This document shows, piece by piece, positions 31,783 through 38,948 of a stretch of DNA of 64,000 nt. The translations under genes and the position numbers were made by a program. The stretch lies in the NCBI RefSeq assembly GCF_058153355.1, contig NZ_CM177019.1. One strand, given 5' to 3'. How positions within the stretch are numbered: position 1 is the stretch's first letter; each line of letters opens with the position of its first letter. The notes beneath the pieces were generated by a model. The model was not told the DNA's origin. It saw only the letters and a program-made list of their open reading frames with translations, and ran no database searches.

Positions 31783-31807
31783 AAGGGGGATATGCCCCCT
31801 TATTTGT
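31783..31807. terminator. Hairpin terminator shared by arsC and the convergent ArsR-family gene
   Basis: aaagggggatatgccccctt followed by tatttg. Confidence 0.6.
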
Positions 31808-32120
31808 TCTCCGCGGCTCCTTCGCCATCTGTTTTGCTGTTTACGCAGCACTCCTCACGTAAGAATTCAATTATCGCTTCCAGCATTGCGTATTGCGAAA
31901 CACACATCAGCGTCCGACTCTCACGGTTTTGTTTGACCAACCCTACCGATACCAGTGCTGAAATATGGTGACTGAGTGTAGAGCCGGGTATCCCAAGCTG
32001 CTTTTGCAACTCACCGACCGGCAACCCTTGTTCCCCCGCTTTGACCAGATGCTTAAATATGAACAAACGGGTCGGATGACCTAACTCTTTCAGTGCCTTA
32101 GCGACCTCTTCCAATTGCAT
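31800..32120 (-). CDS. ArsR/SmtB-family metalloregulator (second copy; C-terminal Cys pair)
   Basis: 106-aa ORF with a wHTH region (LPVGELQKQLGIPGSTLSHHISALVSVGLV) and C-terminal …REECCVNS; divergent from a permease gene. Confidence 0.75.
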   Translation of the reverse strand: MQLEEVAKALKELGHPTRLFIFKHLVKAGEQGLPVGELQKQLGIPGSTLSHHISALVSVGLVKQNRESRTLMCVSQYAMLEAIIEFLREECCVNSKTDGEGAAENK

Positions 32121-32215
32121 GTGTCACCCCCTCTGTCTGGTTGATATTTCGATAATACCAGAAATATCTTGATCTGAACTTCATTTCGATTATTCTGGAA
32201 ATATAGTTTTATTCA

Positions 32216-33229
32216 ATGAGGTTACTTATGAGTAGTTGGCTTGCGATGCTGCAAGATGCCGTAGAGATGTTTGTGTTTCTCGCCGTCGAGCTTTCTTTGC
32301 TGTTTATGGTGATTAGTGCCGGTGTCAGCCTGATAAGACAAAAGGTGCCAGACCATAAAATCCAGCAGATGATGGGGGCCAGAAAAGGGAGAGGCTATCT
32401 CCTGGCTGCTCTGTTGGGAGCCGTTACCCCGTTCTGTAGTTGCTCGACAATACCCATGCTACGTGGATTGTTGTCAGCGAAAGCCGGGTTTGGTCCGACT
32501 CTCACTTTTTTATTTGTTTCACCGTTACTTAATCCCATTATCGTCGGGTTAATGTGGGTGACCTTTGGTTGGAAAGTTACCTTGTTGTACGCGATTATCG
32601 CCGCCGGCGTCTCCGTACTTGCCAGTATTATCTTGGATTCTCTGAGATTTGAACGTCATATCATTGCCAGTAAAAGCTCATCAGCAAATTGTTGCTCTCC
32701 AGCCAAAACTTCGCCGGGGACGACATATACGCCAATAAAAGTGAGTTGCTGTAGTCCAGCGGCTAAAGCCATTGAGAAACCTGTAGTAAACTGTTGCAGT
32801 ACCAAAGCTGTGGTAAGTATTAATCCCATAAAACTAGCCACCAAAGATGCGTTGCAACAGTTTAAAGATGTACTGCCATATCTTTTGTTAGGGGTATTAA
32901 TAGGCTCTTTTATTTATGGCTTTATTCCCTCAGAGTGGATTGCCGCTCATGCAGGGGCAGATAATCCCTTCGCCATCCCATTGAGCGCCGTTGTCGGAAT
33001 CCCGCTGTATATCCGGGCAGAGGCGGTTATCCCTCTGGCATCTGTTCTGATGACAAAAGGAATGGGTCTGGGAGCATTAATGGCATTAATCATCGGCAGT
33101 GCCGGCGCAAGTCTGACAGAAGTGATATTACTTAAATCAATGTTCAGAATACCGATGATAGTTGCATTCCTGACGGTTATCTTAGGTATGGCTATCTTGA
33201 TGGGCTATTTGACTCAAATGCTATTTTAA
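32216..33229 (+). CDS. arsP: ArsP-like organoarsenical efflux permease with a Cys-rich loop
   Basis: 337-aa membrane protein containing TPFCSCSTIP, which I recall as the ArsP signature; internal Cys-rich segment with three CC dipeptides (NCCSPAK…SCCSPAAK…NCCSTKA). Confidence 0.7.
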   Translation: MRLLMSSWLAMLQDAVEMFVFLAVELSLLFMVISAGVSLIRQKVPDHKIQQMMGARKGRGYLLAALLGAVTPFCSCSTIPMLRGLLSAKAGFGPTLTFLFVSPLLNPIIVGLMWVTFGWKVTLLYAIIAAGVSVLASIILDSLRFERHIIASKSSSANCCSPAKTSPGTTYTPIKVSCCSPAAKAIEKPVVNCCSTKAVVSINPIKLATKDALQQFKDVLPYLLLGVLIGSFIYGFIPSEWIAAHAGADNPFAIPLSAVVGIPLYIRAEAVIPLASVLMTKGMGLGALMALIIGSAGASLTEVILLKSMFRIPMIVAFLTVILGMAILMGYLTQMLF

Positions 33230-33339
33230 ATAGATGCCAGCAGTAAACTATAAGGGTAAGCGTCTTATCAGGACCGTCTGGCAAATTCCCGATGCTTTGG
33301 ACAAAGTATCCACCACTAAATTAATAGTGGGTGATAAAA

Positions 33340-33374
33340 ATGTCAGATATACAAAAAAATGCCTCTCCGGGAAG
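33340..33374 (+). pseudogene. IS66-family tnpA (orf1), 5' fragment split by the IS4 insertion
   Basis: ATG at 33340 reads MSDIQKNASPGK then IS4 begins; the frame resumes at 34801 (…SPGRPKGCLNYPPEFKQRL…). Confidence 0.7.
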
Positions 33375-34800
33375 TAATGCCGATCAGTTAAGGATCAGTT
33401 GACCGATCCAGTGGCTGTGTAAGAATCCGGAAACGCTCACTTGTTTCCGGATTTTTTTATGCACATTGGACAGGCTCTTGATCTGGTATCCCGTTACGAT
33501 TCTCTGCGTAACCCACTGACTTCTCTGGGGGATTACCTCGACCCCGAACTCATCTCTCGTTGCCTTGCCGAATCAGGTACTGTAACGCTACGCAAGCGCC
33601 GTCTTCCCCTCGAAATGATGGTCTGGTGTATTGTTGGCATGGCGCTTGAGCGTAAAGAACCTCTTCACCAGATTGTGAATCGCCTGGACATCATGCTGCC
33701 GGGCAATCGCCCCTTCGTTGCCCCCAGTGCCGTTATTCAGGCCCGCCAGCGCCTGGGAAGTGAGGCTGTCCGCCGCGTGTTCACGAAAACAGCGCAGCTC
33801 TGGCATAACGCCACGCCGCATCCGCACTGGTGCGGCCTGACCCTGCTGGCCATCGATGGTGTGTTCTGGCGCACACCGGATACACCAGAGAACGATGCAG
33901 CCTTCCCCCGCCAGACACATGCCGGGAACCCGGCGCTCTACCCGCAGGTCAAAATGGTCTGCCAGATGGAACTGACCAGCCATCTGCTGACGGCTGCAGC
34001 CTTCGGCACGATGAAGAACAGCGAAAATGAGCTTGCTGAGCAACTTATAGAACAAACCGGCGATAACACTCTGACGTTAATGGATAAAGGTTATTACTCA
34101 CTGGGACTGTTAAATGCCTGGAGCCTGGCGGGAGAACACCGCCACTGGATGATACCTCTCAGAAAGGGAGCGCAATATGAAGAGATCAGAAAACTGGGTA
34201 AAGGCGATCATCTGGTGAAGCTGAAAACCAGCCCGCAGGCACGAAAAAAGTGGCCGGGACTGGGAAATGAAGTGACAGCCCGCCTGCTGACCGTGACGCG
34301 CAAAGGAAAAGTCTGCCATCTGCTGACGTCGATGACGGACGCCATGCGCTTCCCCGGAGGAGAAATGGCGGATCTGTACAGTCATCGCTGGGAAATCGAA
34401 CTGGGATACAGGGAGATAAAACAGACGATGCAACTGAGCAGGCTGACGCTGAGAAGTAAAAAGCCGGAGCTTGTGGAGCAAGAGCTGTGGGGTGTCTTAC
34501 TGGCTTATAATCTGGTGAGATATCAGATGATTAAAATGGCGGAACATCTGAAAGGTTACTGGCCGAATCAACTGAGTTTCTCAGAATCATGCGGAATGGT
34601 GATGAGAATGCTGATGACATTGCAGGGCGCTTCACCGGGACGTATACCGGAGCTGATGCGCGATCTTGCAAGTATGGGACAACTTGTGAAATTACCGACA
34701 AGAAGGGAAAGGGCCTTCCCGAGAGTGGTAAAGGAGAGGCCCTGGAAATACCCCACAGCCCCGAAAAAGAGCCAGTCAGTTGCTTAACTGACTGGCATTA
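33375..34800 (+). mobile_element. IS4 (1426 bp) nested inside the IS66-family element
   Basis: Terminal sequences TAATGCCGATCAG… and …CTGACTGGCATTA; 12-bp target duplication CTCTCCGGGAAG at 33363-33374 and 34801-34812; length matches the 1426 bp I recall for IS4. Confidence 0.9.
33459..34787 (+). CDS. insG: IS4 transposase InsG
   Basis: 442-aa product from [16 protein letters not shown]…; DDE transposase. Confidence 0.9.
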
Positions 34801-35197
34801 CTCTCCGGGAAGGCCTAAAGGGTGCCTGAATTATCCTCCTGAATTCAAACAACGACTCATAGAAGCATCATTCCAGCCAGGTGTTTCAATTTCCAGACTG
34901 GCCCTGGACAATGGTATTAATGCCAATCTGTTGTTCAAATGGCGTCAGAAATGGCGGCAGGGGAAGATAAAATTGCCATCATCAGAATCAGGCAGAGAAT
35001 CTCAGTTAATTCCTGTCACTATTGATGCCCAACTCCCAACTGCTCCGGCTAATGAGCCACTGACCGCAAGACCGTCAGTAACACCGGAAATACACAGCAT
35101 CTCCTGTGAGATTACGTTCAGAAACGGCACCCTTCGGTTGAACGGGGCAGTGAATGAAAATCTGCTGTCCTTGCTTATACAGGAGCTGAGACGGTGA
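34801..35197 (+). pseudogene. IS66-family tnpA (orf1), 3' portion downstream of the IS4 insertion
   Basis: Same frame as the 5' fragment; joined product is about 143 aa; stop overlaps tnpB start. Confidence 0.7.
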
Positions 35198-35541
35198 TAT
35201 CTCTCCCTGCAGGTTCGCGTATCTGGCTGGTTGCAGGTATCACCGATATGCGAAATGGCTTTAACGGCCTGGCCTCAAAAGTTCAGAACGTCCTGAAGGA
35301 TGACCCGTTCTCCGGGCATCTGTTCATCTTCCGCGGACGCCGGGGTGACCAGATAAAAGTGTTGTGGGCTGACAGTGACGGACTGTGCCTCTTCACCAGA
35401 CGCCTGGAGCGGGGCCGCTTCGTCTGGCCGGTCACCCGTGACGGCAAGGTGCACCTTACTCCGGCCCAGTTATCCATGCTTCTTGAGGGCATCGACTGGA
35501 AACACCCGAAACGAACGGAACGCGCTGGCATCCGCATATAA
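35194..35541 (+). CDS. IS66-family TnpB (orf2)
   Basis: 115-aa ORF (MISLPAGSRIWLVAGITDMRNGFNGLA…), typical of IS66 orf2. Confidence 0.85.
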   Translation: MISLPAGSRIWLVAGITDMRNGFNGLASKVQNVLKDDPFSGHLFIFRGRRGDQIKVLWADSDGLCLFTRRLERGRFVWPVTRDGKVHLTPAQLSMLLEGIDWKHPKRTERAGIRI

Positions 35542-35560
35542 CCCGTTGTAAAGTGAGGAT

Positions 35561-37132
35561 ATGGACACCTCACTTGCTCATGAGAATGCCCGCCTGCGGG
35601 CACTGTTGCAGACGCAACAGGACACCATCCGCCAGATGGCGAAATACAACCGCCTGCTCTCACAGCGGGTGGCGGCTTATGCTTCCGAAATCAACCGGCT
35701 GAAGGCGCTGGTTGCAAAACTGCAGCGCATGCAGTTCGGTAAAAGCTCAGAAAAACTTCGTGCAAAAACCGAACGGCAGATACAGGAAGCACAGGAGCGA
35801 ATCAGCGCTCTTCAGGAAGAAATGGCGGAAACGCTGGGTGAGCAATATGACCCGGTACTGCCATCTCCCCTGCGCCAGTCTTCAGCCCGTAAACCGTTAC
35901 CTGCCTCACTTCCCCGTGAAACCCGGGTCATCCGTCCGGAAGAGGAATGCTGCCCGGCCTGTGGTGGCGAACTCAGTTCTCTGGGATGTGATGTGTCAGA
36001 GCAACTGGAGCTTATCAGCAGCGCCTTTAAGGTTATCGAAACACAACGTCCGAAACTGGCCTGTTGCCGGTGCGACCATATCGTGCAGGCTCCGGTGCCT
36101 TCAAAACCCATTGCACGCAGTTATGCCGGAGCGGGGCTTCTGGCCCATGTTGTCGCTGGAAAATATGCAGACCATCTGCCGTTATACCGCCAGTCAGAAA
36201 TATACCGTCGTCAGGGCGTGGAGCTGAGCCGTGCCACACTGGGGCGCTGGACAGGTGCTGTTGCTGAACTGCTGGAACCGCTGTATGACATCCTGCGCCA
36301 GTATGTGCTGATGCCCGGTAAAGTCCATGCCGATGATATCCCCGTTCCGGTCCAGGAGCCGGGCAGCGGTAAAACAAGGACTGCCCGGCTGTGGGTCTAC
36401 GTTCGTGATGACCGTAACGCCGGTTCGGAAATGCCTCCGGCGGTCTGGTTCGCGTACAGCCCGGACCGGAAAGGTATCCATCCACAGAATCATCTGGCCG
36501 GTTACAGCGGAGTGCTTCAGGCCGATGCTTACGGTGGTTACCGGGCGTTGTACGAATCCGGCAGAATAACGGAAGCCGCATGTATGGCTCATGCCCGGAG
36601 AAAAATCCACGATGTGCATGCAAGAGTGCCCACCGACATCACCACGGAAGCCCTGCAGCGTATCGGTGAACTGTATGCCATCGAGGCAGAGGTCCGGGGC
36701 TGTTCAGCAGAACAGCGTCTGGCGGCAAGAAAAGCCAGAGCCGCGCCACTGATGCAGTCACTGTATGACTGGATACAGCAACAGATGAAAACACTGTCGC
36801 GTCACTCGGACACGGCAAAAGCGTTCGCATACCTGCTGAAACAGTGGGATGCACTGAACGTGTACTGCAGTAATGGCTGGGTGGAAATCGACAACAACAT
36901 CGCAGAGAACGCCTTACGGGGAGTGGCCGTAGGCCGGAAAAACTGGCTCTTCGCGGGTTCTGACAGCGGTGGTGAACATGCTGCGGTGTTGTACTCGCTG
37001 ATCGGCACATGCCGTCTGAACAATGTGGAGCCAGAAAAGTGGCTGCGTTACGTCATTGAACATATCCAGGACTGGCCGGCAAACCGGGTACGCGATCTGT
37101 TGCCCTGGAAAGTTGATCTGAGCTCTCAGTAA
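35561..37132 (+). CDS. IS66-family transposase TnpC (orf3)
   Basis: 523-aa ORF with an N-terminal leucine-zipper-like region, a CxxC…CxxC zinc-finger-like segment (CPACGG…CCRCDH) and a DDE domain. Confidence 0.85.
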
Positions 37133-37724
37133 ATATCAATACGGTTCTGGCGAGCCGCTTACCTATAAGGAGCATTGTGAGTGCCTTATCCTTCTGAGTA
37201 GAAAATCATAGATAGGATAATCCTTAAAAATCACAAATAACTTAACTAATGCTTTGAGAATGATGACGGATCCGTCAGTAAGTCATCAATCGACAATCAC
37301 CACGCAATCATGCTTCTCTGACATTTTATCGGAGAAGCAATGCCTCTTTGTCTCAGTGCTATCCCCCCTTTTAAAGGGCAGATTTCAGTCGCCAATACAA
37401 CACATTTTTAAATACACTTTAACCTGGTTCATTATTACACATCTAAAACATCACAAAAATATCACTTCACACGCTATCGGAGAACATCATAACTTTTTAA
37501 AATCAGCGCTTTTTGATAGTTGTTAATGTTTTCCTTTACGATACTATCACTGCCCTTTTTTTATACACAAATATTACCGGGTGGAAATGAAAGGGAAGTT
37601 AAAGGTAATTATATCAGGAAGATATGACGCATTGTGTTTATTTCCGCGTAGAAGAAAATCCATTCCTGCTCTAATTCTCCGATTTGCAAAAATTTAGCGA
37701 AATAGATGAACAATAAGGAATGTT

Positions 37725-38948
37725 ATGTCAATTGACTTTACCCCAGGTATGATAAATACATATCACGGCGATATTTATAACCGCACAACAGATACCGACA
37801 ATATTAAAACACCAAACACACCGATGTGGCCTTGTGATAATCAGGAAGAACAGCAACCCATTAATTTTTCATTGTCTGAAGAAGGATATAACGCTGAACA
37901 ATTTGATTTAGCGCAACAACAACTCCAACAAATTAATGCGTGCCACACGAACACCACATATACAAATGCAGACTACTCAAAAGTTGTGGCTCAACTTGTA
38001 AAACTTATTAATAACATTGAAACGATAAGTTCGACACCACTTACGCAACAGACACAATCAATACTTAATCAGATTAATAACATTAGATACGAAAAGAATA
38101 AAAACTCTGAATCTGAAATCATTGTTGTCTTTAATCCTAAGCCCAATAAGCCAATCATAACTAAAATTCTCGTAGAAGAGGGAATACCAGTAAGATTCAG
38201 TGTCCAAACCGTTTCTTCCGAAAATAAAAATTTTTCTGGGCAACGAACTGATTTACCAACTGATATAAAAGATATTCAACGCTTGTACCAAAAAATGACA
38301 AGGTTGTATATTGAGCACAGTAAAAATGAAAACAGGATGAAAGTCTTTGCTGGAACCAACTTTATTGATTTCAATATGACAGGACAGGACCTGTCCGGGT
38401 TCGTTCTAACCTTGTCAAGGTTTTATTTCGAAGATCTACTTAATGTAAACTTCACTGACGCAAATTTATTTGATACTATTTTTTCACATAAGGAAAACCC
38501 TATCACAAAATTACATAAAGATGAACAATATGTTGACAAACAAATCAATGGGTTATTTTCAACATTATTAACCATTAATGACAACTCTTTAAGAGCAAAA
38601 GCGGAAATTGCTTCGATAATAATAGAATTATTAGAAACCAAGGTAAATAATCTTTCATACAACGACATAATAAAATATCAGAAAGAATTCCAAAAAGAAT
38701 GTTACAAGCAAGTTAAATATTTTACAACACCCTCTCGATACAATAGAATTAAAAAATGGGCACAAATGTCTGAATATCAATTCGAAATATTTCAACACGA
38801 TACGTTTCATCCTAAAAAAATGTCATACGCACCTTATTTAAAGAGATCGCTACCTGATGAAAAAACTATAAATTATGGGGTGGAAATAGAAATACCAACT
38901 GGCAAAAGAATTCGCTTATCAAATCATTACCAGAATATAATCCCATAA
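37725..38948 (+). CDS. yhiS: Uncharacterised protein YhiS (intact here) with pentapeptide-like repeats
   Basis: 407-aa AT-rich ORF immediately upstream of slp; segment [40 protein letters not shown] resembles pentapeptide repeats. Confidence 0.7.

Follow-up and report, generated by a model that had tools for sequence, protein, structure and literature searches.

An IS4 copy nested within tnpA of an IS66-family element between an arsP-like permease gene and yhiS

Locus and feature content

The window analyzed here is the whole stretch of 64,000 nucleotides taken from contig NZ_CM177019.1 (RefSeq assembly GCF_058153355.1). It contains two insertion sequences, one inside the other, in the gap between an arsP-like permease gene and yhiS of an E. 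coli chromosome, next to the arsenic-resistance genes. The outer element, a member of the IS66 family, lies 18 bp downstream of the permease stop codon, with yhiS about 555 bp further on, and its insertion interrupts no chromosomal gene. The inner element is IS4. The features of the composite are as follows.

33248-33255, + strand: left copy of the IS66-family 8-bp duplication, CTATAAGG
33256-37162: IS66-family element, 2469 bp without IS4 and one 12-bp repeat (composite, 3907 bp)
33256-33282, + strand: IS66-family left inverted repeat, GTAAGCGTCTTATCAGGACCGTCTGGC; homology to contigs L004, L005, and L012 sets in precisely at 33256
33340-33374, + strand: 5' stub of tnpA (orf1), with the ATG at 33340; 11 codons plus 2 nt (MSDIQKNASPG...)
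33363-33374, + strand: left copy of the IS4 12-bp target duplication, CTCTCCGGGAAG
33375-34800, + strand: IS4, 1426 bp, with its ORF in the orientation of tnpA
33375-33392 and 34783-34800: terminal 18-bp inverted repeats of IS4, identical at 16 of 18 positions
33441-34787, + strand: IS4 transposase, an intact, single ORF
34801-34812, + strand: right copy of the IS4 12-bp target duplication, CTCTCCGGGAAG
34813-35197, + strand: 3' part of tnpA, from codon 12 to the stop, including the HTH_Tnp_1 region
35194-35541, + strand: tnpB, 115 aa, intact (NF033819, 127.8 bits; cut-off, 50)
35561-37132, + strand: tnpC, 523 aa, intact IS66-family DDE transposase (NF033517, 479.3 bits; cut-off, 180)
37136-37162, − strand: IS66-family right inverted repeat (reverse complement, GTAAGCGGCTCGCCAGAACCGTATTGA)
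37163-37170, + strand: right copy of the IS66-family 8-bp duplication, CTATAAGG

The right edge of the IS66-family element is exactly 37162, as given by L012 and by the L013 junction. At the left edge, an earlier description made from the letters alone (the sequence-only reading) had placed the 8-mer at 33258-33265, which is 10 bp off and is the one incorrect pair among its four pairs of coordinates. Because the 8-mer occupies 33248-33255, the element starts at 33256, and the start noted previously, 33258, overshoots that edge by 2 nt and falls within the left inverted repeat. The remainder of that description agrees with the sequence: a 1426-bp IS4 with TAATGCC ends, the 12-bp repeats at 33363-33374 and 34801-34812, and the right 8-bp repeat at 37163-37170 are all present, and the tnpA frame is split after about 11 codons, with IS4 starting 35 nt past the ATG (11 codons plus 2 nt).

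Identity of the two elements

The inner element differs in nothing of substance from IS4 of Escherichia coli K-12 (insG; IS4 family, IS4 subgroup), with which it has in common a length of 1426 bp, imperfect 18-bp terminal repeats, a single DDE transposase ORF, and a 12-bp duplication. It is 99.8% identical to insG as found in a K-12 derivative and, over 1426 bp, 99.9% identical to many copies bearing the annotation “IS4-like element IS4 family.” The terminal sequences read from the window are TAATGCCGATCAGTTAAG and CTTAACTGACTGGCATTA, with repeats that begin TAATGCC. The transposase scores 304.5 bits against NF033592 (cut-off, 115), which assigns it to the IS4-family DDE transposases (NCBIfam), and this IS4 itself appears to be fully functional. 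Target duplications of IS4 range from 11 to 13 bp, about one helical turn; for the IS4 family, a length of about 10 bp has been stated (PMC2266710).

The outer element has three consecutive ORFs, tnpA, tnpB, and tnpC. Its inverted repeats (GTAAGCGTCTTATCAGGACCGT... and GTAAGCGGCTCGCCAGAACCGT...) are identical at the first 7 positions (GTAAGCG) and at 17 positions out of the first 22, and termini starting with GTAAGCG are typical of the IS66 family. Joining the two halves of tnpA (33340-33374 and 34813-35197) yields a 139-aa TnpA that is exactly the natural protein EON3572379.1 and scores 88.9 bits against NF047595 (cut-off, 74). NCBIfam cut-offs are exceeded by all four proteins (IS4 transposase, TnpA, TnpB, and TnpC). 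The exact TnpB protein is known from 14 contigs, the intact copy of the element in L012 encodes a TnpC identical to that of the window, and the Pfam families matched on the L012 homologues, among them HTH_Tnp_1 (PF01527) on the intact TnpA, agree with the IS66 family.

The stop codon of tnpA and the GTG start of tnpB overlap in the GTGA at 35194-35197, from which translational coupling is predicted. IS679 and IS66, which are reportedly the prototypes of the family (Han et al. 2001; Machida et al. 1984), also have the order tnpA-tnpB-tnpC, overlapping stop and start codons, and an 8-bp duplication, but the window element is of a different lineage. An 8-bp target duplication has been reported for IS66 (PMC6778807), and a passage of PMC3469429 that cites Han et al. 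(2001) describes the ORFs of IS66-family elements as translationally coupled.

An intact copy and relationship to ISCro1

An exact-protein look-up of TnpC led to an intact 2469-bp copy of the element in a draft assembly, on the E. coli contig L012. This copy is 99.8% identical, with 5 mismatches and no gaps, to the restored element (the window element from which IS4 and one 12-bp repeat were removed in silico), and it has its own 8-bp duplication, CACCGGAC, on both sides. No uninterrupted full-length copy was found at >80% coverage in complete genomes.

The closest transposases carry the name ISCro1 (IS66 family) from NCBI PGAP. The right end is the same in ISCro1 and the window element, and both have 8-bp duplications and GTAAGCG termini. 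Copies annotated as ISCro1 match window positions 35195-37162 (tnpB-tnpC; element positions 502 to 2469) at about 97% DNA identity, whereas over the first 501 bp of the element (left end and tnpA) identity to ISCro1 drops to about 68%; high full-length identity to ISCro1, including tnpA and the left end, is thus not found. The TnpA of ISCro1 has 225 aa, compared to 139 aa in the window, where an N-terminal extension of ∼86 aa is missing. Since identity breaks exactly at the tnpA/tnpB overlap, the window element is a mosaic relative to ISCro1.

Target duplications and occupancy of the site

The nested insertion, with IS4 in codon 12 of tnpA of the IS66-family element, is real. The 12-mer CTCTCCGGGAAG has exactly two copies in the 64-kb window, where none is expected (100 shuffles), and occurs once each in the uninterrupted tnpA relatives L004 and L005 and also in L012. 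The 8-mer CTATAAGG occurs three times in the window, where 1.16 occurrences are expected, and by itself is within chance; it is regarded as a target duplication because of the empty site and the intact copy found elsewhere and not because of its count. A natural empty site with one CTATAAGG is present in E. coli 2013C-4282, whose sequence is 99.5% identical. The sequence-only reading had considered that the direct repeats might be parts of the element termini instead of target duplications; they are not, as there is a single CTATAAGG at the empty site and a single CTCTCCGGGAAG in L004 and L005.

A contiguous empty-site flank is found in 2,161 of 5,426 complete E. coli genomes (those in which an empty-site construct aligns at coverage of at least 80%), and the junction is uninterrupted in all 2,161. 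In none of the 5,426 complete genomes is the site occupied. The same right outer junction is present in a Logan contig of SRR31441161 and the same left outer junction in a contig of SRR28786219, each from an independent read set. Three further contigs match through an identical permease. The occupied site is therefore a strain-specific marker, lacking in every complete E. coli genome compared (5,426) and present in a few sequencing runs.

Target preference of IS4 and recurrent insertion into tnpA

A half-site matrix for IS4 was built from 61 distinct, independent metagenome IS4 sites. The target consensus consists of an A-run, ∼4 nt, a GC-rich and partly palindromic 11- to 13-mer (which is duplicated), another ∼4 nt, and a T-run. 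It is a terminator-like hairpin, and the terminators of yejO and ompX are example targets. For the IS4 subgroup, De Palmenaer et al. (2008, PMC2266710) describe target arms of striking specificity.

The site used by IS4 in the window, AAAAAAA-TGC-[CTCTCCGGGAAG]-GCCTAAAGG, has the A-run and GC-rich core seen at other IS4 sites but not the T-run half of the consensus. In a matrix scan of 62,562 positions, its left half ranked 4th, its right half 7267th, and the total 108th; within the IS66-family element, it ranked 5th of 2469 positions. The position of IS4 is probably not random. Because the right half is a poor match (7267th of 62,562), target preference accounts for the site only partly, and with the site total only 108th of 62,562, it is not proposed as the full determinant.

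ISCro1-like elements carry IS4 at the homologous tnpA position several times, in both orientations. In E. coli S1-ESP-02-A, E. coli YL03, and plasmid p2022H047-1, IS4 has the same orientation as in the window and lies at homologous codons (RPRRP there, SPGRP in the window), downstream of the same A7 run, but it duplicates CCCCGGCGGCC(C/T), of 11 or 12 bp, and resides in a different host-element lineage. The top matches (H1 to H9) were rejected as the same insertion, as their tnpA is of the ISCro1 type and does not align to the window tnpA (local BLAST). The ISCro1::IS4 copies and the window insertion are independent events. An IS4 by an IS66 tnpC pseudogene in the K-12 derivative Origami2 was also set aside, having no duplication and unrelated flanks. 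A search of the literature on IS4 inserting into IS66 elements returned nothing specific.

It is conceivable, though doubtful, that IS4 specifically targets a conserved tnpA site of IS66-family elements and acts as a selected, recurrent disruptor, beyond its general preference for terminator-like targets. Homologous codons have been struck in ISCro1-like elements whose tnpA shares only about 68% identity with the window tnpA, duplications of 11 or 12 bp and the presence of both orientations point to several independent events, and 7 of 118 metagenome IS4 right junctions lie at the homologous tnpA site. Against this, the ISCro1::IS4 junction was found in only 9 of 5,426 complete genomes, compared to 5,468 IS4 places; the site bears the generic IS4 signature (the A7 run, the GC-rich core, and, in ISCro1, the T-run), for which the ordinary rule suffices; and although it scores well in the matrix scan, other positions score higher, in the window as in L001. 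A related and equally tentative suggestion is that tnpA of the IS66 family may contain a built-in landing pad for IS4 near the start of the HTH-coding region, with IS4 a recurrent natural knock-out. Its basis is the use of different duplicated sequences, of 11 or 12 bp and in both orientations, in two tnpA lineages that are ∼68% identical. The ordinary target rule itself offers an explanation, partial as noted for the window, for both the position of IS4 and the repeated strikes on ISCro1-like tnpA.

Order and recency of the insertions

The structure was very probably formed by two successive simple transpositions, first of the IS66-family element and then of IS4 into its tnpA. In step 1, the 2469-bp element (tnpA-tnpB-tnpC) would have entered the gap between the arsP-like permease gene and yhiS, duplicating CTATAAGG; in step 2, IS4 would have entered codon 12 of tnpA in the same orientation, duplicating CTCTCCGGGAAG. 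That there were two simple events with true target duplications, as first proposed from the letters alone, is in agreement with the empty site, the single-copy repeats, and the intact copy, and we infer their order. The same proposal called both events recent, and this is supported by the 99.9% identity of IS4 to other copies, the 99.8% identity of the IS66-family element to L012, and the presence of the occupied site in 0 of 5,426 complete genomes; recency, too, we infer.

In the reverse order, IS4 would have entered a copy of the IS66-family element elsewhere (e.g., on an L012-like plasmid), and the 3.9-kb composite would then have moved to the ars-yhiS locus, either with another copy providing TnpA in trans or with TnpA being dispensable. 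Both layers would then appear identical to those observed, and plasmid-like contigs do carry intact copies of the element. The comparison across E. coli proposed in the sequence-only reading returned the empty site (2013C-4282) but no singly occupied site (the IS66-family element without IS4 at CTATAAGG); in related strains, contigs assembled from short reads break off 29 nt into the IS66-family element at either end, which suggests more than one copy of those ends in these genomes and would suit the reverse order. However, neither the nested structure nor the inner junction (left part of the IS66-family element joined to IS4) was found elsewhere, either in the 5,426 complete genomes of E. coli or in 72,556 plasmids, the junction is absent from the 120 metagenome IS4 junctions retrieved, and the helper copy that would be required is not present within the window. 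We consider the reverse order improbable.

There is next to no probability that the repeats are termini or arose by chance, with the structure being the scar of a rearrangement or a chimeric assembly. In favor of this reading, the three copies of CTATAAGG (1.16 expected) are not significant alone, but it is refuted by the one CTATAAGG at the empty site, the one 12-mer (chance expectation, zero) in uninterrupted tnpA, the 8-mers other than CTATAAGG that flank the intact L012 element, and outer junctions that are both common to independent assemblies.

Autonomy of the IS66-family copy

IS4 splits tnpA, and tnpB, whose GTG start lies on the tnpA stop, probably loses its translational coupling. 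For these two reasons, the IS66-family copy is most likely non-autonomous. Genetic work on IS679 (Han et al. 2001) is reported to have found tnpA to be required for transposition, and this forms the basis for predicting inactivation; to our knowledge, the functional requirement for each ORF of the IS66 family has been tested only for IS679. With its ends, tnpB, and tnpC intact, the copy could be mobilized in trans.

The sequence-only reading had described the copy as probably inactivated in cis with tnpB and tnpC intact. The intact state of both genes was borne out, and inactivation is the probable but conditional part. A 202-codon ORF (34589-35197) runs in frame from inside IS4 into the remainder of tnpA, and an IS4-tnpA fusion protein that retains the HTH region and the coupling to tnpB may be made; inactivation is therefore only probable.

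The nested IS4/IS66 arrangement is of an ordinary kind. The value of its analysis lies mostly in clean annotation, i.e., the exact boundaries of two insertion sequences with no chromosomal gene disrupted, and in the identification of the IS66-family copy as probably non-autonomous.

Comparison with K-12 and the question of a hotspot

In K-12, yhiS is split by IS5, as stated in the sequence-only reading. Like the window element, yhiS::IS5 is an insertion in the arsC-slp interval, but of a different insertion sequence, and its position inside yhiS corresponds to window positions 38468-38471, about 1.3 kb downstream of the window element. K-12 also lacks the genes for the ArsR-like regulator and the arsP-like permease that adjoin the window element. 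Four independent insertions at four different sites are found in the arsC-slp interval (those of the window, L001, L003, and the IS5 of K-12), and an IS66-type insertion is present there in only two of the listed E. coli matches with the best scores. The suggestion that the locus is an insertion hotspot is thus only anecdotal.

Structure of the nested insertion

The window structure is ordinary biology: an IS4 lies within tnpA of an IS66-family element, and both insertion sequences are already known. The sequence-only reading recognized this nesting correctly and it was cleanly verified; added here are a small observation on IS4 target choice and one corrected coordinate. The relevant features are as follows.

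32216-33229, arsP-like permease gene (Pfam ArsP_1 on the identical protein)
33256-37162, IS66-family element, 3907 bp (2469 bp minus IS4 and one repeat copy)
33375-34800, IS4, 1426 bp, between both copies of CTCTCCGGGAAG
35194-35541, tnpB, open
35561-37132, tnpC, open
37725-38948, yhiS orthologue, intact, 407 aa

Pattern search of the 64-kb window located exactly two copies of CTCTCCGGGAAG (33363-33374 and 34801-34812; shuffles lead to an expectation of zero), at the positions originally read for the 12-bp duplication. The IS4 ends, TAATGCCGATCAGTTAAG and CTTAACTGACTGGCATTA, are 18-bp inverted repeats with two mismatched positions (16 of 18 match). Many annotated IS4 copies share 99.9% identity with this one, and insG of a K-12 derivative shares 99.8%. 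The same search placed CTATAAGG at 33248-33255 and 37163-37170. The 8-bp duplication and its right coordinate had been read correctly, while the left one (33258-33265) contained a 10-bp slip; because the left copy is at 33248-33255, the element spans 33256-37162. Its ends read GTAAGCGTCTTATCAGGACCGT... (left) and GTAAGCGGCTCGCCAGAACCGT... (right, reverse complement). tnpA starts with ATG at 33340, and reading of window 33000-37500 placed the interruption, estimated earlier at about 11 codons, after 11 codons plus 2 nt; tnpB and tnpC are intact, as proposed. The 64-kb window contains no further copy of IS4 or the IS66-family element.

All four proteins exceed the curated NCBIfam cutoffs: IS4 transposase (NF033592, 304.5 bits versus 115), TnpA (NF047595, 88.9 versus 74), TnpB (NF033819, 127.8 versus 50), and TnpC (NF033517, 479.3 versus 180). 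Compared with ISCro1, the PGAP name of the closest annotated transposases, the IS66-family element has a mosaic sequence: tnpB-tnpC (35195-37162) is ∼97% identical to ISCro1-annotated copies, whereas identity is only ∼68% in the left end and tnpA, and TnpA has 139 aa, compared to 225 aa in ISCro1. This change in identity is located exactly at the tnpA/tnpB overlap (35194-35197).

Target duplications

The direct repeats at both layers are target duplications. Of 5426 complete Escherichia coli genomes, 2161 aligned in one piece and with at least 80% coverage to an empty-site construct (left flank, one CTATAAGG, and right flank). The empty sites sought by the earlier reading therefore exist; the best match, strain 2013C-4282 (99.5% identity), reads ...CAGCAGTAAA-CTATAAGG-AGCATTGTG..., with a single 8-mer. 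Similarly, the left end and tnpA, restored by removing IS4 and one 12-mer, aligned in one piece (94 to 96%) to uninterrupted copies in the chromosome of E. coli 2013C-3033 and on several plasmids, each having one CTCTCCGGGAAG and homology beginning exactly at GTAAGCG. Exact-protein lookup of TnpC retrieved a draft E. coli contig (GCA_047897835.1) that is plasmid-like (serine-protease autotransporter gene and traM/traJ) and carries an intact element differing from the restored 2469 bp by five mismatches and no gaps; at this copy the flanking 8-bp duplication is a separate one, CACCGGAC. A natural protein identical to the restored 139-aa TnpA is known.

Both outer junctions recur in independent read sets. 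An SRR31441161 Logan contig opens with the terminal 29 nt of the right end, followed by CTATAAGG-AGCATTG; after ...AAACTATAAGG, an SRR28786219 contig stops 29 nt into the left end. The identical permease is present on three further contigs, the left junction being read from the SRR28786219 contig alone. Short-read contigs of related strains thus end 29 nt inside both IS66 ends (L013:1-29 and L137:7029-7057), which suggests that these ends are multicopy in those genomes and that helper copies are possible.

Chromosomal setting

The setting next to the ars cluster and upstream of yhiS was confirmed. The IS66-family element starts 18 bp past the stop codon of the permease gene, upstream of which are arsB, arsC, and an ArsR/SmtB-like regulator, and lies ∼555 bp upstream of the yhiS orthologue; its insertion interrupts no chromosomal gene. 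Window 31800-33229, downstream of arsC, comprises the regulator (minus strand) and the permease. K-12 lacks window 31800-37415 altogether, including the permease part of the empty-site construct, which covers the 3' part of that gene and the downstream intergenic region. The IS5 noted earlier for K-12 yhiS is indeed present, splitting the gene at the point equivalent to window 38468-38471 (K-12 locus, L014:6063-7265).

ISCro1 is inserted in the same interval at approximately window 37303-37310 in MFDS1016424 and within the permease gene (∼32723-32731) in 20AR0354; coordinates in other strains' arsC-slp intervals are L001:3696/6396 and L003:2270/4969. The arsC-slp interval has therefore received four independent insertions at four different sites, the window included. 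This is suggestive of the hotspot proposed earlier but does not demonstrate one; the junction is uninterrupted in all 2161 genomes aligning to the construct.

Downstream of dctR, a heme uptake cluster of the chuS/chuA/chuT/chuW type (window 40507-∼50200) was recognized from HemS, TonB-dependent receptor, periplasmic binding protein, and radical-SAM Pfam matches on identical genes of the contig carrying the right outer junction; K-12 lacks it at this position.

Consequences and order of events

IS4 disrupts tnpA and leaves tnpB, tnpC, and both IS66 ends intact. The ORFs of IS66-family elements are described as translationally coupled in a passage of PMC3469429 citing Han et al. (2001). In the window, the GTG start of tnpB overlaps the tnpA stop (GTGA, 35194-35197). 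In IS679, each of the three ORFs is reportedly needed for transposition. From this overlap, coupling, and requirement, we infer that the copy is no longer autonomous; of the earlier claim of inactivation in cis, the split of tnpA is directly observed. A caveat to this loss of autonomy is a predicted chimeric ORF (34589-35197, plus strand, 202 codons). Its start lies within IS4, out of frame with the transposase, and it continues into the rest of tnpA in the tnpA frame, keeping the helix-turn-helix region. It is probably coincidental; no obvious ribosome-binding site for it was seen in window sequence 33000-37500.

In the simpler reading, the IS66-family element would have entered the chromosome and IS4 would then have inserted into its tnpA. 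Transposition of a preformed IS66::IS4 composite with a helper copy is improbable, as the inner junction (IS66 left part/IS4) was found nowhere else among 5,426 complete E. coli genomes, 72,556 plasmids, and the metagenome IS4 junctions retrieved.

IS4 target preference

Metagenome contigs scanned for the right end of IS4 yielded 120 junctions with 70 distinct flanks, of which 61 (from L015-L134) remained after removal of near-duplicates and IS66 sites. Their consensus half-site is C-N-S-C-N4-G-N2-G (the duplicated 12-mer), followed by ∼4 nt and TTTTT. The full target is therefore an A-run, N4, a GC-rich, partly palindromic 12-mer, N4, and a T-run, with a duplicated core of 11 to 13 nt. This target is shaped like a bidirectional intrinsic terminator, and IS4 prefers such hairpins. 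Examples are the yejO terminator (L135:3035-4460; AAAAAAAACCA[ACCGTAAAGGT]TGGTTTTTTTT) and the ompX terminator (L136:3027-4452; AAAAAATCCG[CCTCTCGGGGC]GGATTTTT). The older IS4 consensus is AAA-N20-TTT, with which the derived target agrees. When the window with IS4 excised was scored by matrix (62,562 positions), the real site ranked 4th by its left half, 7267th by its right half, and 108th in total (5th of 2469 within the IS66-family element); the site is therefore a strong half-site.

IS4 also occurs in ISCro1-like elements at homologous tnpA codons (RPRRP, compared to SPGRP in the window); both sites are directly 3' of an A7 run and 5' of an NFPYEFK/NYPPEFK motif. Duplications around these IS4 copies, summarized as CCCCGGCGGCC(C/T), are CCCCGGCGGCCC in YL03 (12 bp), CCCCGGCGGCC in S1-ESP-02-A (11 bp), and CCCCGGCGGCCT in metagenome contig L033 (12 bp), and the opposite orientation is found in metagenome junctions L053, L080, and L113. 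Coordinates are L002:3001-4426, L008:2501-3926, and L033:913-2338. This tnpA lineage is only ∼68% identical to that of the window, and these are several independent events, each independent of the window insertion. Their frequency is modest: the junction occurs in 9 of 5,426 complete E. coli genomes, against 5,468 IS4 places, and in 7 of 118 metagenome IS4 junctions. The site, A7-CGT-[CCCCGGCGGCCT]-AA-TTTT, has the generic IS4 signature, and the ordinary target rule is therefore sufficient for recurrence.

In L080 and L053, IS4 lies between the ISCro1 tnpA site on one side and a different common IS4 site on the other, without matching duplication; this looks like recombination between IS4 copies. 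In E. coli Origami2-DE3 (L007:2501-5339), an IS4 (insG) without target duplication is located between ybfC and Rhs fragments, directly beside a degraded IS66-family tnpC pseudogene.
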